A stretch of 24,205 nucleotides of DNA from a virus (Duplodnaviria > Caudoviricetes): the IMG/VR virus record IMGVR_UViG_3300045580_000107, positions 1-24,205 of that record. One strand, written 5' to 3'. The position numbers and the translations under genes are program-made. Shown in pieces: positions 2,507 to 22,520 of this stretch (position 1 is its first letter; each line of letters opens with the position of its first letter). The notes beneath the pieces are model-generated. The model did not search any database, was not told the origin of the DNA, and worked only from the letters and a program-made list of their open reading frames with translations.

Positions 2507-2616
2507 TAGTCAGGACAGGAATCGAACCTGTATGTTTACTCGTTTAGGCAATCAGACGAACAACTCTGGACCACTTAACTTTCAACGGTCTGCGTCTACC
2601 ATTCCGCCACCTGACT
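2507..2616 (-). ncRNA. Expanded tRNA-like RNA (Leu-type D arm, aberrant anticodon and variable region)
   Basis: Acceptor AGTCAGG/CCTGACT; D arm TGGCGGAATGGTAGACGC; T arm ACAGG-TTCGATT-CCTGT. The middle holds an elongated GACCG...TGGTC hairpin and a second long hairpin instead of a 5-bp stem/7-nt loop anticodon arm. 110 nt. Confidence 0.75.
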
Positions 2617-5141: not shown

Positions 5142-5389
5142 CGGTTGGTGAGTTGCAGGATGACAACCGTAAGCCCCGCCGAGGCGAGGCCGTACACGGG
5201 AGCGAGAACCCATCCGCAAGTGGGCAAGGTCAGGGCCACCGCCACCCAAAAGGTGAGGCAGGTGACGCAACTGAACGGCTTGTGCCTTCCCAGCCAAGTC
5301 GTGTACCACCATTGGGGGAGGACATGGTACTCGGCAATGGCGAGGGCGGTCAGCGAACTAATCAGCAGGGGAAATATCAGCGTGTCCAT
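5138..5389 (-). CDS. Membrane protein with KPFSCxxC..FW motif (DUF1360-like)
   Basis: 83 aa, 2-3 hydrophobic segments, KPFSCVTCLTFW. Confidence 0.7.
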   Translation of the reverse strand: MDTLIFPLLISSLTALAIAEYHVLPQWWYTTWLGRHKPFSCVTCLTFWVAVALTLPTCGWVLAPVYGLASAGLTVVILQLTNR

Positions 5390-5909
5390 GGGCTTGAATG
5401 GCGGCCTTGATTTTGGCCTTGGCTTGGTCTATTGAGTAAATGATGGAGCGGTACGGTATGCCCGTGTCCCTTGAGAGTTTCTTCATGTTCCCCGTCCGAA
5501 GGTGCAGTTTCAGCAGTTCCTTGTCGTAAGGGAACGCCCCGTCCTTGGCCCAAGTGTCCATCTCTGCCTCGGCGATGGCCCAAAGGTCGTCCATCAAGGA
5601 ATCGTACTCGGCCTGCGATATGGGGGCATCGGGGTTCAGTTCTTCCAGCAAGTCGTGGTGACGGTACTTTTGGGCGAACTGGTTGTTTTTTCCTCGGTAG
5701 AGGTTCAGCAGGAGGCGGACCACATAGAACTTGAAATACCCCTGCGACTGAATTTGCAGGATTTTGGCGGGGTCTTTCTCCAGCAGGATGAGGACGCATT
5801 CCTGTTCCAAGTCCCTCCAAAGCGGGTCGCCCCCTGTGATGGTCAGGCACGCTTTTCGGATTTCGCCCGTGCGGTAGAGGTCGAGGATTACGGTTTCTGC
5901 GGATGCCAT
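5358..5909 (-). CDS. Phage sigma-70/ECF-like RNA polymerase sigma factor
   Basis: Region-2-like DLEQECVLILL...YFKFYVVRLLLN and C-terminal region-4 HTH MKKLSRDTGIPYRSIIYSIDQAKAKIK. Start set at ATG 5909, after the terminator. Confidence 0.7.
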   Translation of the reverse strand: MASAETVILDLYRTGEIRKACLTITGGDPLWRDLEQECVLILLEKDPAKILQIQSQGYFKFYVVRLLLNLYRGKNNQFAQKYRHHDLLEELNPDAPISQAEYDSLMDDLWAIAEAEMDTWAKDGAFPYDKELLKLHLRTGNMKKLSRDTGIPYRSIIYSIDQAKAKIKAAIQAHGHADISPAD

Positions 5910-6939: not shown

Positions 6940-7131
6940 TTAGTGGTTTATGGTTTGGAAAAGTTGGTATTTATCGCAAGAATCGGTCTTGATTTTTATC
7001 TGCGGCCCGAATCCGTTGGACCTGCTCAACACATACTCGCAGGCATCCCCCTTGGGCCTCACCTCGATAACCGTCCACGGGCGGTCGTTGGTGCAGGAGG
7101 TCAAGAGGAACAGGAGCAGTATGCGGCGCAT
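6940..7131 (-). CDS. Small putative lipoprotein
   Basis: MRRILLLFLLTSC: basic N-terminus, hydrophobic core and lipobox Cys; own -7 box 4 nt upstream. Confidence 0.7.
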   Translation of the reverse strand: MRRILLLFLLTSCTNDRPWTVIEVRPKGDACEYVLSRSNGFGPQIKIKTDSCDKYQLFQTINH

Positions 7132-7135
7132 GGTC

Positions 7136-7143
7136 CAAAGATA
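7136..7143 (-). promoter_or_regulatory. Bacteroidota -7 box TATCTTTG
   Basis: Exact TAnnTTTG, 4 nt before ATG 7131. Confidence 0.65.
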
Positions 7144-8761: not shown

Positions 8762-9437
8762 CGGTTTGGTTTAGTGGGTTGAAGGTAGCGGTTCGGGGGA
8801 TTACTTGGTCCTCCCATCGGGCTTGGTTGATGTAGGTCGCTGCGTGGGGTACGAACTGGATGGGAGTTTCGGAGTAGAGCCGTCCGATGTTTGCGATGGC
8901 CTTCTGCTGGTCCTCGTCCTTGAGTTTGGCAAAGGCTTTGGATGCGGCCTGCTTGGATGTCTTCCTTGGGTACAAGGCCCAAAATTGGTCAAAAAGGACA
9001 CAACCACTTTCTCCTCTCTTCTTCTCTTCTCTTCTCTTCTCTTCTCTATTGAACATAGGTTCAACCTTAGTTGAAGGTAGGTTCAACATAGGTTCAACCT
9101 TGGTTGAATTTTCTTCAACCTTTGCTGACCTCCTTTCGGCACTCCGCTTGCCCGCTTGGGACATCTTGGTCCGATGCAGGTTGGCTTCCTCCCATTGGAT
9201 GTCAAGGAACTTGATGAACACCGACGGCCCGTTGGATTCTACCAGTCGGGTTTGGAGTAACCGTTCAAGATGCCCATCGGCTTCCAGTTCGGCGTGGTCG
9301 GTTGACATCTCGCATTCTGCGTTCCAATAGACGCAGCAGAGTCGGATGAAGGCCACCTGCACTTCGGCGGGTTGGCGGGATATTCGGCCCATCATCCAAT
9401 CGGCTGGGCAGAACTTAAACCATGATATTTGCTTCAT
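8733..9437 (-). CDS. Phage replication initiator (YdaU/DUF1376-like N-terminus)
   Basis: WFKF.P.DW..G...LCC.YW; central low-complexity linker with iterons and REEKRREEK; C-terminal FDQFW.LYPRK.SK..A.KAF.KL...PH.ATY.NQ.RWED; directly upstream of dnaB. Confidence 0.85.
   Translation of the reverse strand: MKQISWFKFCPADWMMGRISRQPAEVQVAFIRLCCVYWNAECEMSTDHAELEADGHLERLLQTRLVESNGPSVFIKFLDIQWEEANLHRTKMSQAGKRSAERRSAKVEENSTKVEPMLNLPSTKVEPMFNREEKRREEKKRGESGCVLFDQFWALYPRKTSKQAASKAFAKLKDEDQQKAIANIGRLYSETPIQFVPHAATYINQARWEDQVIPRTATFNPLNQTDDEPLPSYR
9014..9121. repeat. Putative replication origin: iterons plus pyrimidine tract inside the initiator gene
   Basis: AACATAGGTTCAACCTT(A/G)GTTGAA at 9052-9075 and 9085-9108 (33-bp period), each with a TTCAAC..GTTGAA inverted repeat; extra TTCAACCTT near 9114; (CTTCT)n run at 9014-9046. 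Confidence 0.7.
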
Positions 9438-9441
9438 GAGT

Positions 9442-9476
9442 AAAAAAAAGCCCCAACTGGTAGAGGCAGTCGGGGC
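9442..9476 (-). terminator. Intrinsic terminator (attenuator) 4 nt upstream of the initiator ATG
   Basis: GCCCCGACTG-CCTCTAC-CAGTTGGGGC followed by T8. Confidence 0.9.
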
Positions 9477-9545
9477 AGGGTTAGTTGAGGAACCCTTTTA
9501 TCTAAACGACTTGCTGACCTCTACTTCAGCAAACCGCCTTTATTG
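9442..9545 (-). ncRNA. Structured three-hairpin leader with loop-loop complementarity
   Basis: Hairpin 1 TTGCTGA-AGTAGAGG-TCAGCAA; hairpin 2 AGGGTT-CCTCAACT-AACCCT; terminator loop CCTCTAC is the exact complement of GTAGAGG in loop 1. Confidence 0.75.
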
Positions 9546-9570
9546 CAAATGTAATCTTTGGGCAAAGTTA
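9546..9570 (-). promoter_or_regulatory. Two tandem -7 boxes (TAACTTTG 9563-9570, TACATTTG 9546-9553)
   Basis: Both exact TAnnTTTG, upstream of the structured leader; overlapped by the inverted repeat GTAATCTTTG-GG-CAAAGTTAC. Confidence 0.65.
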
Positions 9571-9815: not shown

Positions 9816-10237
9816 GGGTTTTTGGTTGGGGTTTGGTTTACTAATTTATTCATGATTTCGGTAAGTTTGAATACCTGCTGGGCAAGAGATTCAACGGTCA
9901 ACTCTTGGACACTTGCAGGCTCTTCGGTAAATAGTTCAGGGCTTGATTTGGATTTTACCTTTGATTGGTTTGCTCTTTTTGTTTGGGCATCGTAGCAGTT
10001 TACGCAAATTTCAAGCGATGGGCCAACTTGACTGACTGCTTTGTATTTGCCGTAAGCCACTTTCTCAATAACTCCAGCAGCAACAAAATAGTCGTGAAGG
10101 TTATTCCCAGCGTTCATTGAATACGCTAATGCTTTAATTCTTTTTGTTGGTGTAGGGTCTTTGCAAATGAACCAAAGAACGGTTCCGTACAAATAGGCTT
10201 TTTGATTCCTTCGGTTTTCATTTAGAGATGTTTTCAT
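9812..10237 (-). CDS. Hypothetical protein (AT-rich)
   Basis: 141 aa, ATGA-coupled, CTAAACC-ATG start context. Confidence 0.7.
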   Translation of the reverse strand: MKTSLNENRRNQKAYLYGTVLWFICKDPTPTKRIKALAYSMNAGNNLHDYFVAAGVIEKVAYGKYKAVSQVGPSLEICVNCYDAQTKRANQSKVKSKSSPELFTEEPASVQELTVESLAQQVFKLTEIMNKLVNQTPTKNP

Positions 10238-10460
10238 GGTTTAGGGTTTTGATTTGGTTGGGTTGAATTGAGTATTTGCAGTTTTCTTGCACGAGCCAAT
10301 TTGAGGCCCGTAAATCGCTTAGAATGCGGTAGGTGGTACGCATATTAAGGCCAAGCACTTCGGCGAGTTCTACGGCCCTGTATGGGCGTTGTGCGAGGTA
10401 CGACACGGCGTAGATGGTGGCGACCCTTCGTTGGATTTCTTTTCCTTTAGGTTTGGGCAT
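10218..10460 (-). CDS. Winged HTH DNA-binding protein
   Basis: ELAEVLGLNMRTTYRILSDL...W; start trimmed to ATG 10460. Confidence 0.75.
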   Translation of the reverse strand: MPKPKGKEIQRRVATIYAVSYLAQRPYRAVELAEVLGLNMRTTYRILSDLRASNWLVQENCKYSIQPNQIKTLNHENISK

Positions 10461-10687: not shown

Positions 10688-10996
10688 TTAGGGGATTAGT
10701 TGGTATTTGCGTCCGTTGTGTTCAATGATTTCGGGGATGCGGTTGTCTATGATTGTACCATACGAATTTTCATAGTAGATTTGATTACCTTGAGAATCGA
10801 ATTCCCGCTTTACCCAAAATCCAGTTGAGTCGTCATGGTAGATTTCATTACCCTTCAAATCGTATTGAGTCTTTGCCCACCATCCATCTGAAAGTTCTCG
10901 GTAGATAAATCTACAATTCTTGTCCTTGATTGCTAAAGGACCATTCTTCTCAAAATCCCACTTTAGCCATTGGCCGATTGTTTGTCCGTCTTTCAT
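10688..10996 (-). CDS. Hypothetical repeat protein (W.K..YD..GN.IY.E.S.G units)
   Basis: 102 aa, AT-rich, about three ~22-aa repeats. Confidence 0.75.
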   Translation of the reverse strand: MKDGQTIGQWLKWDFEKNGPLAIKDKNCRFIYRELSDGWWAKTQYDLKGNEIYHDDSTGFWVKREFDSQGNQIYYENSYGTIIDNRIPEIIEHNGRKYQLIP

Positions 10997-10998
10997 GG

Positions 10999-11448
10999 TT
11001 AAGTGGTCTTAAAAGTTACTGCGATGGATGGTTTTGTCCCTTTGGCGGGACATACGGGAACCGCTTCGCCCGTCGCTTCGTCGTACATCGTAGCCTTGCC
11101 AGCGTTGCGGAAGGCCATCTTGAGCAGTTCTTCCCTTGCCTTTATGGATGCCTGCAAGTCGCTCCATTGCTGGTCGTGCGTGTAGTCGGGAGTCAGCGCC
11201 CCCTCCTTGATTTGGATTTCTGCACCGAAGGCAGAGAATGTCTTGCCGTGCTTTTCAGCCTCGTCCCGAACGATGTCCTCGGTGGATTTGAGGACTTGCT
11301 CCAGGGCTTTGACGACTGCTTTGAGGCGCACATGGGCGGCGATGGGGTTTACCTCGCCTTCCTCGATGCGGTGGATGAGGTTGGCGGCGATGTCGGCGAT
11401 GTCAGCCTTGCTGATGTCGCTCTTGGGGATGGTGACTAAGTGGTTCAT
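10999..11448 (-). CDS. Hypothetical phage protein (recombination module)
   Basis: Helical protein; start trimmed to ATG 11448 (ATGA overlap with the upstream stop at 11445). Confidence 0.75.
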   Translation of the reverse strand: MNHLVTIPKSDISKADIADIAANLIHRIEEGEVNPIAAHVRLKAVVKALEQVLKSTEDIVRDEAEKHGKTFSAFGAEIQIKEGALTPDYTHDQQWSDLQASIKAREELLKMAFRNAGKATMYDEATGEAVPVCPAKGTKPSIAVTFKTT

Positions 11449-12470: not shown

Positions 12471-12482
12471 TGCTTATTGGGT

Positions 12483-12602
12483 TTAGTGGGTGATAATTGC
12501 AAGGATGAATCTGCCGAAGAATGCGATGCCGAGCATGGTTGCCAGCAGGATGTAGCCCGTAATGAGGGCTGCTTTGAGTTTGGCTTGGGTTTCGTGGTTC
12601 AT
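12483..12602 (-). CDS. Small membrane protein (39 aa)
   Basis: Hand translation MNHETQAKLKAALITGYILLATMLGIAFFGRFILAIITH*; AAACCC-ATG context. Confidence 0.65.
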   Translation of the reverse strand: MNHETQAKLKAALITGYILLATMLGIAFFGRFILAIITH

Positions 12603-12628
12603 GGGTTTGAGGTTTGAGGTTAAAGAAT

Positions 12629-12653
12629 GTGCGTTGGCGAGTCGCACCCCTCG
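12629..12653 (-). other. Compact intergenic RNA structure (possible H-type pseudoknot)
   Basis: CGAG-GG-GTGCG-A-CTCG-CCAA-CGCAC: crossing stems CGAG/CTCG and GTGCG/CGCAC. Confidence 0.5.
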
Positions 12654-12658
12654 GTTGG

Positions 12659-12862
12659 TTAAAGTTTAAAATCCTGAATTTTTATGCCGTTTGAAGTTGG
12701 GTAATTCCCACATCCATCCTGCCATACTTCCCAAACTACACCGTTTACGTTGTAGTAGGTGTCGTTCCCTTTCATCCCAATATAGGATGAGGTTCTATTA
12801 TTATTAATAAATTCGGCAGCTGCGATTGTTACTTCTGGGTTTGTGTAAATTGATGTTCTCAT
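12659..12862 (-). CDS. Hypothetical protein, first gene of the early operon
   Basis: 67 aa, AT-rich, directly downstream of the promoter at 12894-12901. Confidence 0.7.
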   Translation of the reverse strand: MRTSIYTNPEVTIAAAEFINNNRTSSYIGMKGNDTYYNVNGVVWEVWQDGCGNYPTSNGIKIQDFKL

Positions 12863-12889
12863 GGTTTTTTGGTTTAGTGGTTGGTTTGT

Positions 12890-12902
12890 AGGTCAAAGAT
12901 AC
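12890..12902 (-). promoter_or_regulatory. Early leftward promoter core GTATCTTTGACCT
   Basis: Exact TAnnTTTG (12894-12901) at the divergence point; all 13 nt are identical to 22508-22520. Confidence 0.75.
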
Positions 12903-15422: not shown

Positions 15423-16658
15423 TTAGGGGGTTGTCAGCGTTGCGAGTTCTGCGTCGGTGAGGCGGGTGTTATACAAGGCCACGGCACGGATGCGATTTGG
15501 CTTGAATCCGCTGATGAATCCAGCAGTTTTCTCTATAACAAGAGAATTTAATGCCGCATTAAATGTAATTGCACCTGTGTTAAGCGTTCCAACCCGTGAG
15601 CCGTTGAGGTACATCGTTGAATCGCCACTTTTGTAAGCGATAGCGATTTTGACCATTCCCGTGATATTGCTGGCAGATGTAAATAGAATGCTTGCAGAAC
15701 TGTGAAAAATCCTTCCGATATAAGCGTTGCTTGCATTTTTGTAGAGCGCAATGCCATTGGCCACACTCCGATTGATAAAAAATACATCGTCCTCGATATT
15801 GTTGGCTTCGCACTCAATGTAAAGTACGCCCTCCGTCTGCCCGATGGACCCGCTGACCGCTCCGCTCACGGATACCACATCGGCTGAACGGCTACCCGTG
15901 CCTGCGGTGGTGGGGATGTAGGAGGTGGCAACGGAACCTGCTTCAACCTGTGCGCCATAGACAAAAAATCCATTTGTGCCGTTGCCCGTGTAAGAGGGAT
16001 TCCCCGAATCGTCAAGGAGGAATAAAATAAAATTATTGGACGGTTGATTAGCAGTAAATGTTGCGCCTATACGATACCATCCATTACCGTAATTTTGAAT
16101 GAAAGGATTAGTGCCTCCCGTAACTGTTCCAGATGTTAGGTTAAAGTCCAAGTCCCAATAAGCCCCTGAACCGCTCGTCCTTAAACGACCACGGGTTCTT
16201 TCGGATGCCTTTACAAAAAAACTTGCAGTATAGGTTGTTCCGCTTGTTAATGTCAAAGGTTGTAAACAAAAGTGACTTCCCGTAACTGCCGCCTCAATCA
16301 ATTTGTCGGCATTTGTTGTGCCGTCAGGGGATGCGGTCACATTGCCTGAAACGGTTGCTCCTTGCGAGCCACTTGTAGCCACCCAAGGAGAAACATTCCA
16401 AGCCTCACTTTGCAACAACAAGTTCGTCCCCGCAGGCTCCACAAGCAACGCAGGACACCCCGTAACGCCGCCGCTTGTGTAGTAGTCCAAGCGGGGGATT
16501 CCCGATGCTACGGATTCAATTGCTCCCGCATCGTTGAGCCTCGTCGCAGTCGTATTGCGGGTAACGGTGAAATCTCCCGCACCGCTTGTGGGGATTTGCG
16601 AATACAACTTGCCCGTCTTGAAACGAGCGGGAACGATTAATAGTGAAGGCGTGGGCAT
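15423..16658 (-). CDS. Virion fibre/spike-like protein with carbohydrate-binding and LamG-like domains
   Basis: GDFTVTR...ATR, PRLDY, LLVEP..TNLL..SE, NGWYRI, YGAQVEAG..ATSYIPT.....R.AD, C-terminal LYNTRLTDAELATLT; G/S/T-rich. Confidence 0.75.
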   Translation of the reverse strand: MPTPSLLIVPARFKTGKLYSQIPTSGAGDFTVTRNTTATRLNDAGAIESVASGIPRLDYYTSGGVTGCPALLVEPAGTNLLLQSEAWNVSPWVATSGSQGATVSGNVTASPDGTTNADKLIEAAVTGSHFCLQPLTLTSGTTYTASFFVKASERTRGRLRTSGSGAYWDLDFNLTSGTVTGGTNPFIQNYGNGWYRIGATFTANQPSNNFILFLLDDSGNPSYTGNGTNGFFVYGAQVEAGSVATSYIPTTAGTGSRSADVVSVSGAVSGSIGQTEGVLYIECEANNIEDDVFFINRSVANGIALYKNASNAYIGRIFHSSASILFTSASNITGMVKIAIAYKSGDSTMYLNGSRVGTLNTGAITFNAALNSLVIEKTAGFISGFKPNRIRAVALYNTRLTDAELATLTTP

Positions 16659-21352: not shown

Positions 21353-22429
21353 TCACAATTTGCGCCCAATACTTCGGTAGAGTTCGGCTCTGCGCTCGGC
21401 GGTCTTGGTAATGTCAAACCTTTCACGCACATCCTTGGACAACTGCACGGCCAAGGAGCGAGCGTAGTCGGGTTCGTTCACGAATTTCCTGACCGCCTTG
21501 TACCAAGCGTCCTTCTTGCCGTAAGGTATCACAAGCCCGTTGTGGCCGTGGACGAGAATGTCCGTATAGGGGATGGTTTCGGATGCGATGATAGCCTTGC
21601 CCATCCAGCCTGCCTCAACCACTTTCAGTTCGCTTTTGAGGCGGTTGAACTTGGTATCACGCAAGGGTGCGATGGTTGCGTTGATGAAGTTGTACCCGCC
21701 CACATAGGAATAGATGTCAGCGGCTTGGATGCGTCCGTAGTTCTTATTCACCCCCCTGCAGGAAAGCATCCGCTCGTAATCGTCGTAAACAGGGTTGTTG
21801 TCGTTCCACCCGCCAAGGTAGATTTTGTATCTCCCATCCAGCGACTTGTCGTGGGCAAGCAGGCCGAACGAATGCTCAACGAGTGCGATATCTTCCTGAT
21901 GCTGCGCCCCTCCAAACCATCCGATTTTAAACAGGTGCGGTTCGGGTTCAGCCGTCGTGTCGGGCAAGTACTGCTGATATGCTTCGTAGGGTTCGTTGGG
22001 AAGGATGGTCACGGCTTTGTTGAGCAGGCGAATCTTTTGGGCGAGGTGTTCGGTCGTGGTGGTCACATGGTCAGCCAAGCGGATATGCTCACGAATCTGC
22101 TCATCCAATTTCGTGGACAGGTAGTGCCGATACATGATGTGGCCGCTCTCCAGCACCCAATAATCGTCAAGGTCCAAGATTACCTTGGCGCCAAAGGCCG
22201 TCAAAGCCTTGTAAACATTGCGAATTTGTTCCAAGGTACCTTGACACCAAAGGCGATTGAAAAGCCATATATCAACGGTCTTTAGGTCTTCGTCCTTGAC
22301 ATTGGCGATATTGTCCACGCATACATAGTCAAACTCGGTGTAGTTGTCGCCGATGTAAGCGTTCGGCATTTCCAGCCGATAGAACGAGCAGCCCGTCGGG
22401 TGGGCGTTGTAAACGATGCAAATTCTCAT
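21353..22429 (-). CDS. GT-B fold glycosyltransferase (GT4-like)
   Basis: G..FYRL.MP, DLDDYW, AD.VTTTT..LA, IGW.GG..H..D, APL....FN.LKSELK.VEAG......IAS...PY; start trimmed to ATG 22429. Confidence 0.88.
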   Translation of the reverse strand: MRICIVYNAHPTGCSFYRLEMPNAYIGDNYTEFDYVCVDNIANVKDEDLKTVDIWLFNRLWCQGTLEQIRNVYKALTAFGAKVILDLDDYWVLESGHIMYRHYLSTKLDEQIREHIRLADHVTTTTEHLAQKIRLLNKAVTILPNEPYEAYQQYLPDTTAEPEPHLFKIGWFGGAQHQEDIALVEHSFGLLAHDKSLDGRYKIYLGGWNDNNPVYDDYERMLSCRGVNKNYGRIQAADIYSYVGGYNFINATIAPLRDTKFNRLKSELKVVEAGWMGKAIIASETIPYTDILVHGHNGLVIPYGKKDAWYKAVRKFVNEPDYARSLAVQLSKDVRERFDITKTAERRAELYRSIGRKL

Positions 22430-22432
22430 GCT

Positions 22433-22440
22433 CAAAGGTA
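22433..22440 (-). promoter_or_regulatory. -7 box TACCTTTG
   Basis: Exact consensus, 3 nt before ATG 22429, next to the terminator U-tract. Confidence 0.65.
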
Positions 22441-22441
22441 C

Positions 22442-22474
22442 AAAAAAAAGGGCCACCCCTTGCGAGATGGCCCC
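22442..22474 (-). terminator. Intrinsic terminator
   Basis: GGGCCATCTC-GCAA-GGGGTGGCCC followed by T8 (GNRA loop). Confidence 0.9.
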
Positions 22475-22508
22475 TGACCACTAAACCATGCGGCGTATGA
22501 GAACCGCA
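22442..22508 (-). ncRNA. Candidate trans-acting antisense sRNA (~66 nt)
   Basis: Bounded by TATCTTTG (22512-22519) and the terminator; 5' hairpin TGCGG-TTCTCATACG-CCGCA, then TGGTTTAGTGGT; complementary to the early-gene leader at 12855-12881. Confidence 0.7.
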
Positions 22509-22520
22509 GGTCAAAGATAC
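22508..22520 (-). promoter_or_regulatory. sRNA promoter core GTATCTTTGACCT
   Basis: Exact TAnnTTTG; 13-nt identity with the early promoter at 12890-12902. Confidence 0.7.

Follow-up and report, generated by a model that had tools for sequence, protein, structure and literature searches.

Directly behind a tail-tube-like phage gene, on the minus strand, lies a short unit ended by a terminator, which is a real, conserved element. We consider it fairly probable that the unit specifies a trans-acting RNA with several targets, which represses early translation in the manner of FopS and GibS and has a side-function in cis on the adjacent glycosyltransferase gene. The unit was analyzed in IMG/VR record IMGVR_UViG_3300045580_000107, a 78%-complete virus record of which the whole stretch of 24,205 nt is called the window here, and in relatives, the complete ones of which measure 31–35 kb. 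The early region of these lake phages holds a Rad52-like annealing protein, an SSB, a replication initiator and DnaB. The tail-tube label was taken over from an earlier, sequence-only reading of the window and rests on gene order behind a capsid-like gene; the protein belongs to phrog_19091 (unknown function), and the only phage records with a homolog were those of the Nonlabens phages P12024S and P12024L (31% identity). A further homolog was found in a Chitinophagaceae assembly (42% identical to the first sequence of the alignment). These homologs and the promoter type point to Bacteroidota hosts.

Reading along the minus strand from the tube stop (22522), one meets first the -7 box (22519-22512), then a 4-nt spacer, the 5' hairpin, a linker and the terminator (Table 1). 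The box agrees with TAnnTTTG, the Bacteroidota -7 element (available text of PMC6847099), and the canonical -33 TTTG was absent at both promoters, that of the unit and that of the first early gene. The start of the RNA was placed by analogy with a tRNA in the window, which starts 4 nt downstream of a like box at 2628. This tRNA-like gene (2507-2616, minus strand) carries a long insertion, and relative G007 has a different sequence behind the same tRNA promoter. The unit was predicted to fold as the 5' hairpin, a single-stranded linker and the terminator (-29.8 kcal/mol, z = -3.66, reached by 0/200 shuffles). The sequence-only reading had described a 66-nt unit without an ORF, bounded by a -7 box and a terminator, with two blocks complementary to the leader of the first early gene; its strings, coordinates and the 13-mer shared by the two loci were all reproduced. 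As it had proposed, the computed fold and accessibility place most of the 8-nt block within the loop of the 5' hairpin, and the linker between the hairpins contains the 12-nt block. The CUCAU loop may bear some likeness to an anticodon or U-turn loop, but it folds as 8 nt, not 7.

Table 1. Features of the unit, its predicted partners in the window and the seeds of the five lineages
Feature	Position	Strand	Sequence or remark
Tail-tube-like gene, 175 aa	22522..23049	-	last gene ahead of the unit; its own mRNA would end in the unit
Bacteroidota -7 box	22512..22519	-	TATCTTTG; predicted start 22507 +/- 1
Predicted 66-nt RNA	22442..22507	-	no ORF on the minus strand
5' hairpin, CUCAUAC loop, anti-AUG arm	22490..22507	-	complementary to the first early start in the window and, across the lineage, to the glycosyltransferase start
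Single-stranded seed	22477..22488	-	UGGUUUAGUGGU; complement of the early leader tag; 12-nt block in the open linker
Intrinsic terminator	22442..22475	-	12-bp stem and U tract
Second -7 box	22433..22440	-	TACCTTTG; 3 nt ahead of the glycosyltransferase ATG; predicted leaderless mRNA
Glycosyltransferase gene	21353..22429	-	phrog_7162, PF13692; start is the conserved partner of the 5' arm
First early promoter and leader	12855..12902	-	-7 box 12894-12901, 12-nt tag 12870-12881, ATG 12862; best predicted target
10-nt tag ahead of 46-aa early gene (12470)	12480..12489	-	
Near-match tag ahead of 102-aa gene (10996)	10996..11008	-	rank 3, -15.8 kcal/mol
10-nt tag taking in the ATG of 141-aa gene (10237)	10235..10244	-	
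11-nt tag ahead of DnaB-like helicase start (8761)	8767..8777	-	
8-nt tag ahead of 50-aa gene (6937)	6940..6947	-	rank 2, -16.1 kcal/mol
C1 seed			GGTTTAGTGG; 48/48 contexts
C2 seed			GAGGTTTG; 85/85 contexts
C3 seed			TTGGTTGGTT; 35/35 contexts
C4 seed			GTTTGGGnTGG; 29/29 contexts
C6 seed			TTCGTTGTCGTTAAT; 16/16 contexts

An Rfam scan of the window returned only a tRNA above the gathering score; an overlap with BjrC68 (E = 0.49, 19.8 of 39 bits) was taken as chance, and nothing informative came from L405, L410, L411, L121 and L122. For expression, 23 runs were listed, all as assembled contigs, and a common stop was not seen among these contigs, which carry neither ends nor strand. In two of them (X6 and X12), coverage is higher over the capsid-tube stretch than on the glycosyltransferase side; the runs had been retrieved with the capsid-tube stretch itself, and the difference was not counted as evidence.

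Tube proteins were used in six scans, which yielded 326 loci; apart from 10 that ended too soon, these collapsed to 219 distinct contexts. Sorted by terminator sequence alone, 213 of the 219 fell into five lineages (C1, C2, C3, C4 and C6), each with an invariant seed behind the tube gene. Five of the remaining six contexts had a U/G-rich tract and then a terminator, and the distant relative L364 had no U/G-rich tract. A -7-like box followed the tube stop in all 168 contexts of C1 to C3 (TATATTAG in most of C3) and in 0/45 contexts of C4 and C6. The C1 loop CTCATAC was kept in 54/55 contexts and in 119/119 pattern hits; at the start of the C1 glycosyltransferase gene only 2/25 third codon positions were invariant. 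Covariation within the structure was modest: across 17 related sequences 97% of cells were paired, with two compensated pairs, and 3/500 shuffles did as well. The terminator was paired in 100% of cells in these 17 sequences, and the 5' hairpin held one compensated pair. Among the terminators found, that of the unit had the most G/U-rich upstream tract in 5/6 records. The family is common in IMG/VR: 377 tube relatives were counted, and about 200 stored stretches hold the exact C1 unit. Two loci, L119 and L120, carry tandem tube paralogs, and L119 shows a further seed type that is contiguous with an anti-AUG sequence; in L362/L363 the seed matches the downstream leader over 10 nt.

Pairing between the predicted RNA and the first early leader was assessed by energy and by length. 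The two blocks lie at 22477-22504 (plus strand) and 12855-12881 (minus strand), and the identical 13-mers at 22508-22520 and 12890-12902. Predicted binding to the first leader was -20.2 kcal/mol (dinucleotide shuffles -5.7 +/- 2.1, 0/1000 reaching it), and that leader had the top rank (-20.1 kcal/mol) among the 44 start windows, whose median was -9.5. A perfect complement of 12 nt inside the 44 start windows was reached by 7/2000 shuffles, and one anywhere in the window by 59/1000. When self-structure was ignored, the best duplex among the 44 windows was not significant (159/1000 shuffles). The expectation of the earlier reading that pairing energy would exceed that of shuffles held for the first leader and was not borne out in the structure-free comparison of the best of 44. 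In a single genome the match is no more than moderately unusual, and the case rests on the relatives. The first early promoter was present in 15/17 C1 and 5/8 C2 records, and those were compared. A leader block of at least 8 nt complementary to the exposed linker was kept in 14/15 same-lineage (C1) records and was 8 nt long in all 6 C2 rows, and the first leader bound its own RNA better than all 40 shuffles in 17/19 records.

The first early gene as a single target, which had been supposed, is not supported, as the tag precedes many early genes. From 41 assembled long records, the 40 belonging to the five lineages were used together with the window, with starts and genes taken from our own simple gene caller. 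When leader k-mers were ranked blind to the seed, the complement of the lineage's own seed took first place in C1 and C2, ranked second to fourth in C3, shared the top place in C6 and stood lower in C4. The top k-mers of C1 leaders were CTAAACC (17 families) and ACTAAACC (10 families), which both complement the C1 seed, and that of C2 leaders was CCCAAACC (10 families). The tag AAACCTCA occurred in 15/255 C2 leaders (7 families) vs. 1/860 leaders of other lineages, and AACGAC in 4/116 C6 leaders vs. 1/999 others. Orthologs of the annealing-protein gene bear the tag that matches their own lineage. For each seed, the own-lineage match was better than that of composition-matched permutations (p = 0.0005-0.07), and the best-ranked predicted target was an early or replication gene in 19/20 records. 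Tags either reach into positions -13 to -3 or sit just upstream, and the 10-nt tag occurs inverted in one copy per C1 record examined. Adenines in the -13 to -3 region promote initiation in Flavobacterium (available text of PMC6847099).

Several other observations were made in the early region. The gene at 12602 (12602-12625, minus strand) bears a C2-type leader tag, identical to that of G015 and poorly matched by the RNA of the window, and the early region is mosaic in that this gene carries the tag of another lineage. Joints in the expression contigs also jump from early genes to the first leader, as if tags were exchange points. A hairpin-like motif of the type GAGGGG-GCG...CGCAC (12629-12652, minus strand) separates the first early gene from the tagged leader that comes next. 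It has 13 hits across all five lineages and is possibly a processing or antitermination site. Directly before the ATG of the replication initiator (9442-9570, minus strand) there are two -7-like boxes, two hairpins and a terminator, with weak Rfam hits only; similar units are present in C1, C2 and C6 records, and the arrangement is suggestive of an attenuator or of a second small RNA. At 7131-7143 (minus strand) a -7 box stands 4 nt ahead of an ATG, which suggests a second leaderless gene; some relatives put a tagged leader behind that promoter. The 183-aa protein at 5358-5909 (minus strand) is conserved in these phages and shows a weak likeness to sigma or HTH families. Leader motifs specific to a lineage (GTGGTATT in 18/141 C4 leaders, GATATTTA in 12/181 C3 leaders) may be late promoters of this protein. 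In G027, a record of 44 kb, the early region is present twice, probably because of an assembly overlap.

Covariation between seed and tag, which the earlier reading had looked to as support, is clear in three lineages and absent in two; genomes within a lineage are not independent, leaders and seeds are of low complexity, and the independent seed changes behind this comparison are a handful. Seeds were lineage-specific in C2, C3 and C6 and not in C1 and C4. The C1 seed matched 23/387 windows of its own lineage, 14/256 of C2 and 12/185 of C3. The seeds of C1 and C4 match foreign leaders as often as their own because CTAAACC is common to C1-C4. C1 leaders preferred their own RNA in 13/14 cases, and first leaders of C2 were bound better by the C1 RNA than by the C2 RNA in 4/5 records. 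The own-lineage energy test, in its ungapped-helix version with G-U pairs allowed, gave 0 of 300 shuffles for C3, 4 for C2b, 7 for C6, 25 for C4, 31 for C1 and 35 for C2a, so that 2% or better was reached by C2b and C3 alone. The C2 seed itself varies between A and G (61 and 32 of 93), a change that is tolerated because of G-U pairing.

The second block behaved differently from the first. According to the sequence-only reading, the RNA pairs with the first early gene in two parts, like the RNAs of P4 and P1. The block over the AUG measures 8 nt in the window alone and 3-5 nt in the other 14 of the 15 C1 records, where the first gene is usually a different one. The constant partner of the 5' arm is instead the glycosyltransferase start, about 70 nt downstream. 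This gene follows in all 114 pattern hits with enough flank. CTCAT is matched by ATGAG in 48/48 C1 contexts and TTCAT by ATGAA in 82/85 C2 contexts, the three exceptions having an ATGAG start and no TTCAT. In read-through RNA, the AUG was predicted to be paired with the arm in 37/41 C1, 39/42 C2 and 3/3 C6 sequences (mean pairing 0.82, 0.89 and 1.0 vs. 0.17, 0.41 and 0.18 for shuffled arms), and pairing in cis at this AUG was found in 0/28 C3 and 0/21 C4 sequences. As the glycosyltransferase gene has its own -7 box, 3-4 nt ahead of the ATG, it would not need read-through. As a target of the 5' arm in trans, the glycosyltransferase mRNA came 3rd in C6, whereas its places in C1-C4 were low, from 17th to 45th among 41-52, and one record gave no rank. 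A toehold switch, in which the early leader frees the glycosyltransferase AUG, was also considered. The leader opened the AUG in 14/19 records, and the switch was rejected as unspecific because 5-36 of 43-51 other start windows opened it as well.

The AUG-arm pairing in C1, C2 and C6 is what would be expected if the unit acted in cis only, as the 3' end of the structural operon, with the terminator stopping transcription, the arm hiding the glycosyltransferase start and the leader match arising from A/C-rich composition. The lack of a promoter in C4 and C6 and the seeds of C1 and C4 that are not lineage-specific also fit this explanation. However, nothing near the glycosyltransferase start pairs with the invariant linker seeds of C1-C4, and no cis pairing is seen in C3 or C4. 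Composition alone is also at odds with the lower scores of the permuted seeds, with the spread of the C2 tag in step with the C2 seed, and with an upstream tract that is the most G/U-rich in most records. We therefore regard a purely cis-acting unit as unlikely, though it is the strongest competitor to a trans-acting RNA.

Under the favored reading of a trans-acting repressor, the predicted RNA would pair with the tagged early mRNAs and thereby block ribosome loading. In C1-C3, the 66-nt RNA would be made from a host-type -7 promoter from the start of infection. In all lineages, the same sequence would also form the 3' tail of the late capsid-tube mRNA; for C4, C6 and P12024 no other source is evident. 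Early mRNAs would be lost through turnover as the RNA builds up, so that the early and replication genes would be braked with a delay, and a related co-infecting phage bearing the same tag could likewise be damped. In read-through transcripts, the 5' anti-AUG arm would fold onto the glycosyltransferase start, so that translation would come only from the leaderless mRNA of the gene's own promoter. Pairing in vivo, repression as its sign, and the timing are what we infer. A broader version is put forward tentatively, as a possibility that we would not bet on. Here the phages would use an RNA address code, in which a lineage-specific tag is copied ahead of early genes as cassettes swap, one complementary RNA, at the end of the capsid-tube message, silences the whole set, the tagged early genes of co-infecting kin included, and the 5' arm gates the glycosyltransferase; such a code would run the early-to-late switch in lytic Bacteroidota phages, the hosts of which do without Shine-Dalgarno pairing.

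The sequence-only reading had favored a different role for a trans-acting RNA, namely a CI- or C4-like bipartite silencer of the first early gene that controls immunity or a lysis-versus-carrier decision. In phage P4, CI RNA acts on phage mRNA through short exposed sequences. Such a role agrees with the pair of collinear blocks seen in the window, with the host-type promoter of C1-C3 and with the scan of proteins, which named no repressor. Nevertheless, it is improbable: the 8-nt AUG block occurs in 1/15 records and the first gene is variable, no C4 match was found in Rfam, two lineages are without the promoter, and 4 loci were found among the matches listed in GTDB. A PF00589 tyrosine integrase was found in 0/16 records (14 of them at least 90% complete), and neither a repressor nor an integrase was seen among 63 proteins picked from three relatives; the phage is probably lytic. 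The promoter core shared by the two loci, from which co-transcription had been suggested, is indeed identical in the window but gives no support for a special link, being identical in 5/15 C1 records and 0/6 C2 rows and an instance of the general Bacteroidota -7 box (available text of PMC6847099). The bipartite match, like the shared core, belongs to the window genome and not to the system.

In a Chitinophagaceae assembly, near-identical anti-start tracts with a terminator were found at L406:4800-4870, behind a tube-like gene, and at L411:1490-1560, behind another gene (one of two contigs each), with no Rfam hit; L406 is without most of the early region, and targets were not judged from it. 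These two contigs would suit an RNA that mainly hits host mRNAs or titrates a host RNA-binding protein, with phage leaders copying host initiation regions. The precedent is FopS, which binds RbpB and represses numerous host mRNAs at the start (available text of PMC11697453). On the other side, the seeds follow phage-lineage tags such as AAACCTCA, and the host determinants described in the available text of PMC6847099 are single adenines, not such tags; a mainly host-directed RNA seems, if anything, slightly more doubtful than a CI-like one. Least credible of all is that a phage protein uses the tag as its DNA site, or that the opposite strand is a 15-codon mini-gene with an ordinary leader, for although the plus strand shows the tag, an ATG and a short frame and small HTH proteins are present, the nearest plus-strand -7 box is at 16090, the ATG beside the tag is kept in 41/55 contexts with indels shifting the frame, and the tag is not palindromic and is inverted essentially once per genome, between the hairpin and the minus-strand terminator.

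A syntenic element occurs in cultured phages. In P12024S, a U-rich low-complexity tract and a terminator stand right behind the tube homolog, with no promoter ahead of the tract. Its longest complement in the genome (13 nt, 9/2000 shuffles) is the gp24 leader behind a -7 box; P12024L keeps the tract and an 11-nt match ahead of a different gene. As both phages are in culture with a named host strain, Nonlabens (Persicivirga) sp. IMCC12024, the proposed repression in trans by the RNA is testable.

Among known systems, the closest likeness is to FopS and GibS of Bacteroides thetaiotaomicron, which have a single-stranded seed and a terminator and repress by pairing at start codons (available text of PMC11697453 and PMC7366714). 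FopS-10 pairs next to the start codon and blocks initiation (PMC11697453, same text), and GibS takes the same route (PMC7366714, same text). Shared with this family (RF04319), as far as the available texts describe it, are the length of about 65-70 nt, a primary-sigma promoter, the seed, the terminator, several targets in start regions and one member derived from a 3' UTR. The FopS/GibS RNAs are host-encoded, multicopy and directed against host glycan-utilisation mRNAs in these texts, whereas the phage unit is single-copy and would act on the phage's own early leaders through a seed specific to the lineage; it also has an extra 5' hairpin and, in C4 and C6, no promoter. No match to RF04319 was found in the window (E <= 5) or in five relatives (0/5), with a positive B. 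thetaiotaomicron control. The C4 RNA of P1 and P7 likewise acts as a phage RNA on phage mRNA through short exposed sequences, and small changes in its target give phage-specific groups; its fold comprises three stem-loops, RNase P cleaves it, and two loops mediate its role in lysogeny and immunity (available text of PMC5320573), in contrast to the two hairpins and many targets here. P22 sar, lambda OOP and aQ, and 24B_1 also control phage genes post-transcriptionally by pairing, but they are antisense or single-target RNAs of temperate enterobacterial phages (available text of PMC12197685); in that text the terms 'Bacteroid' and 'early gene' are absent. Predicted targets of the present unit are distant and its complementary seed is short and conserved, as for trans-encoded base-pairing sRNAs in general. 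By analogy, the unit would work like FopS and GibS, and loosely like C4, and is a member of neither. In a literature search that left most subscription journals outside, no paper turned up that describes a phage-encoded RNA as a joint repressor of the phage's own early genes in Bacteroidota. IMG/VR was screened in PMC10690425, and, judging from its available text, the supplements, with 10,006 candidate RNAs, may list the unit without a function.

If the favored reading is true, small lytic phages would have a protein-free way to close their early programme. In the lytic phage T4, translation of a set of early mRNAs is repressed through their start regions by RegA, which is a protein, whereas the candidate here is an RNA. 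Such an RNA would also explain the repeated A/C-rich tags ahead of early genes, and it would predict lineage-specific interference among co-infecting phages.
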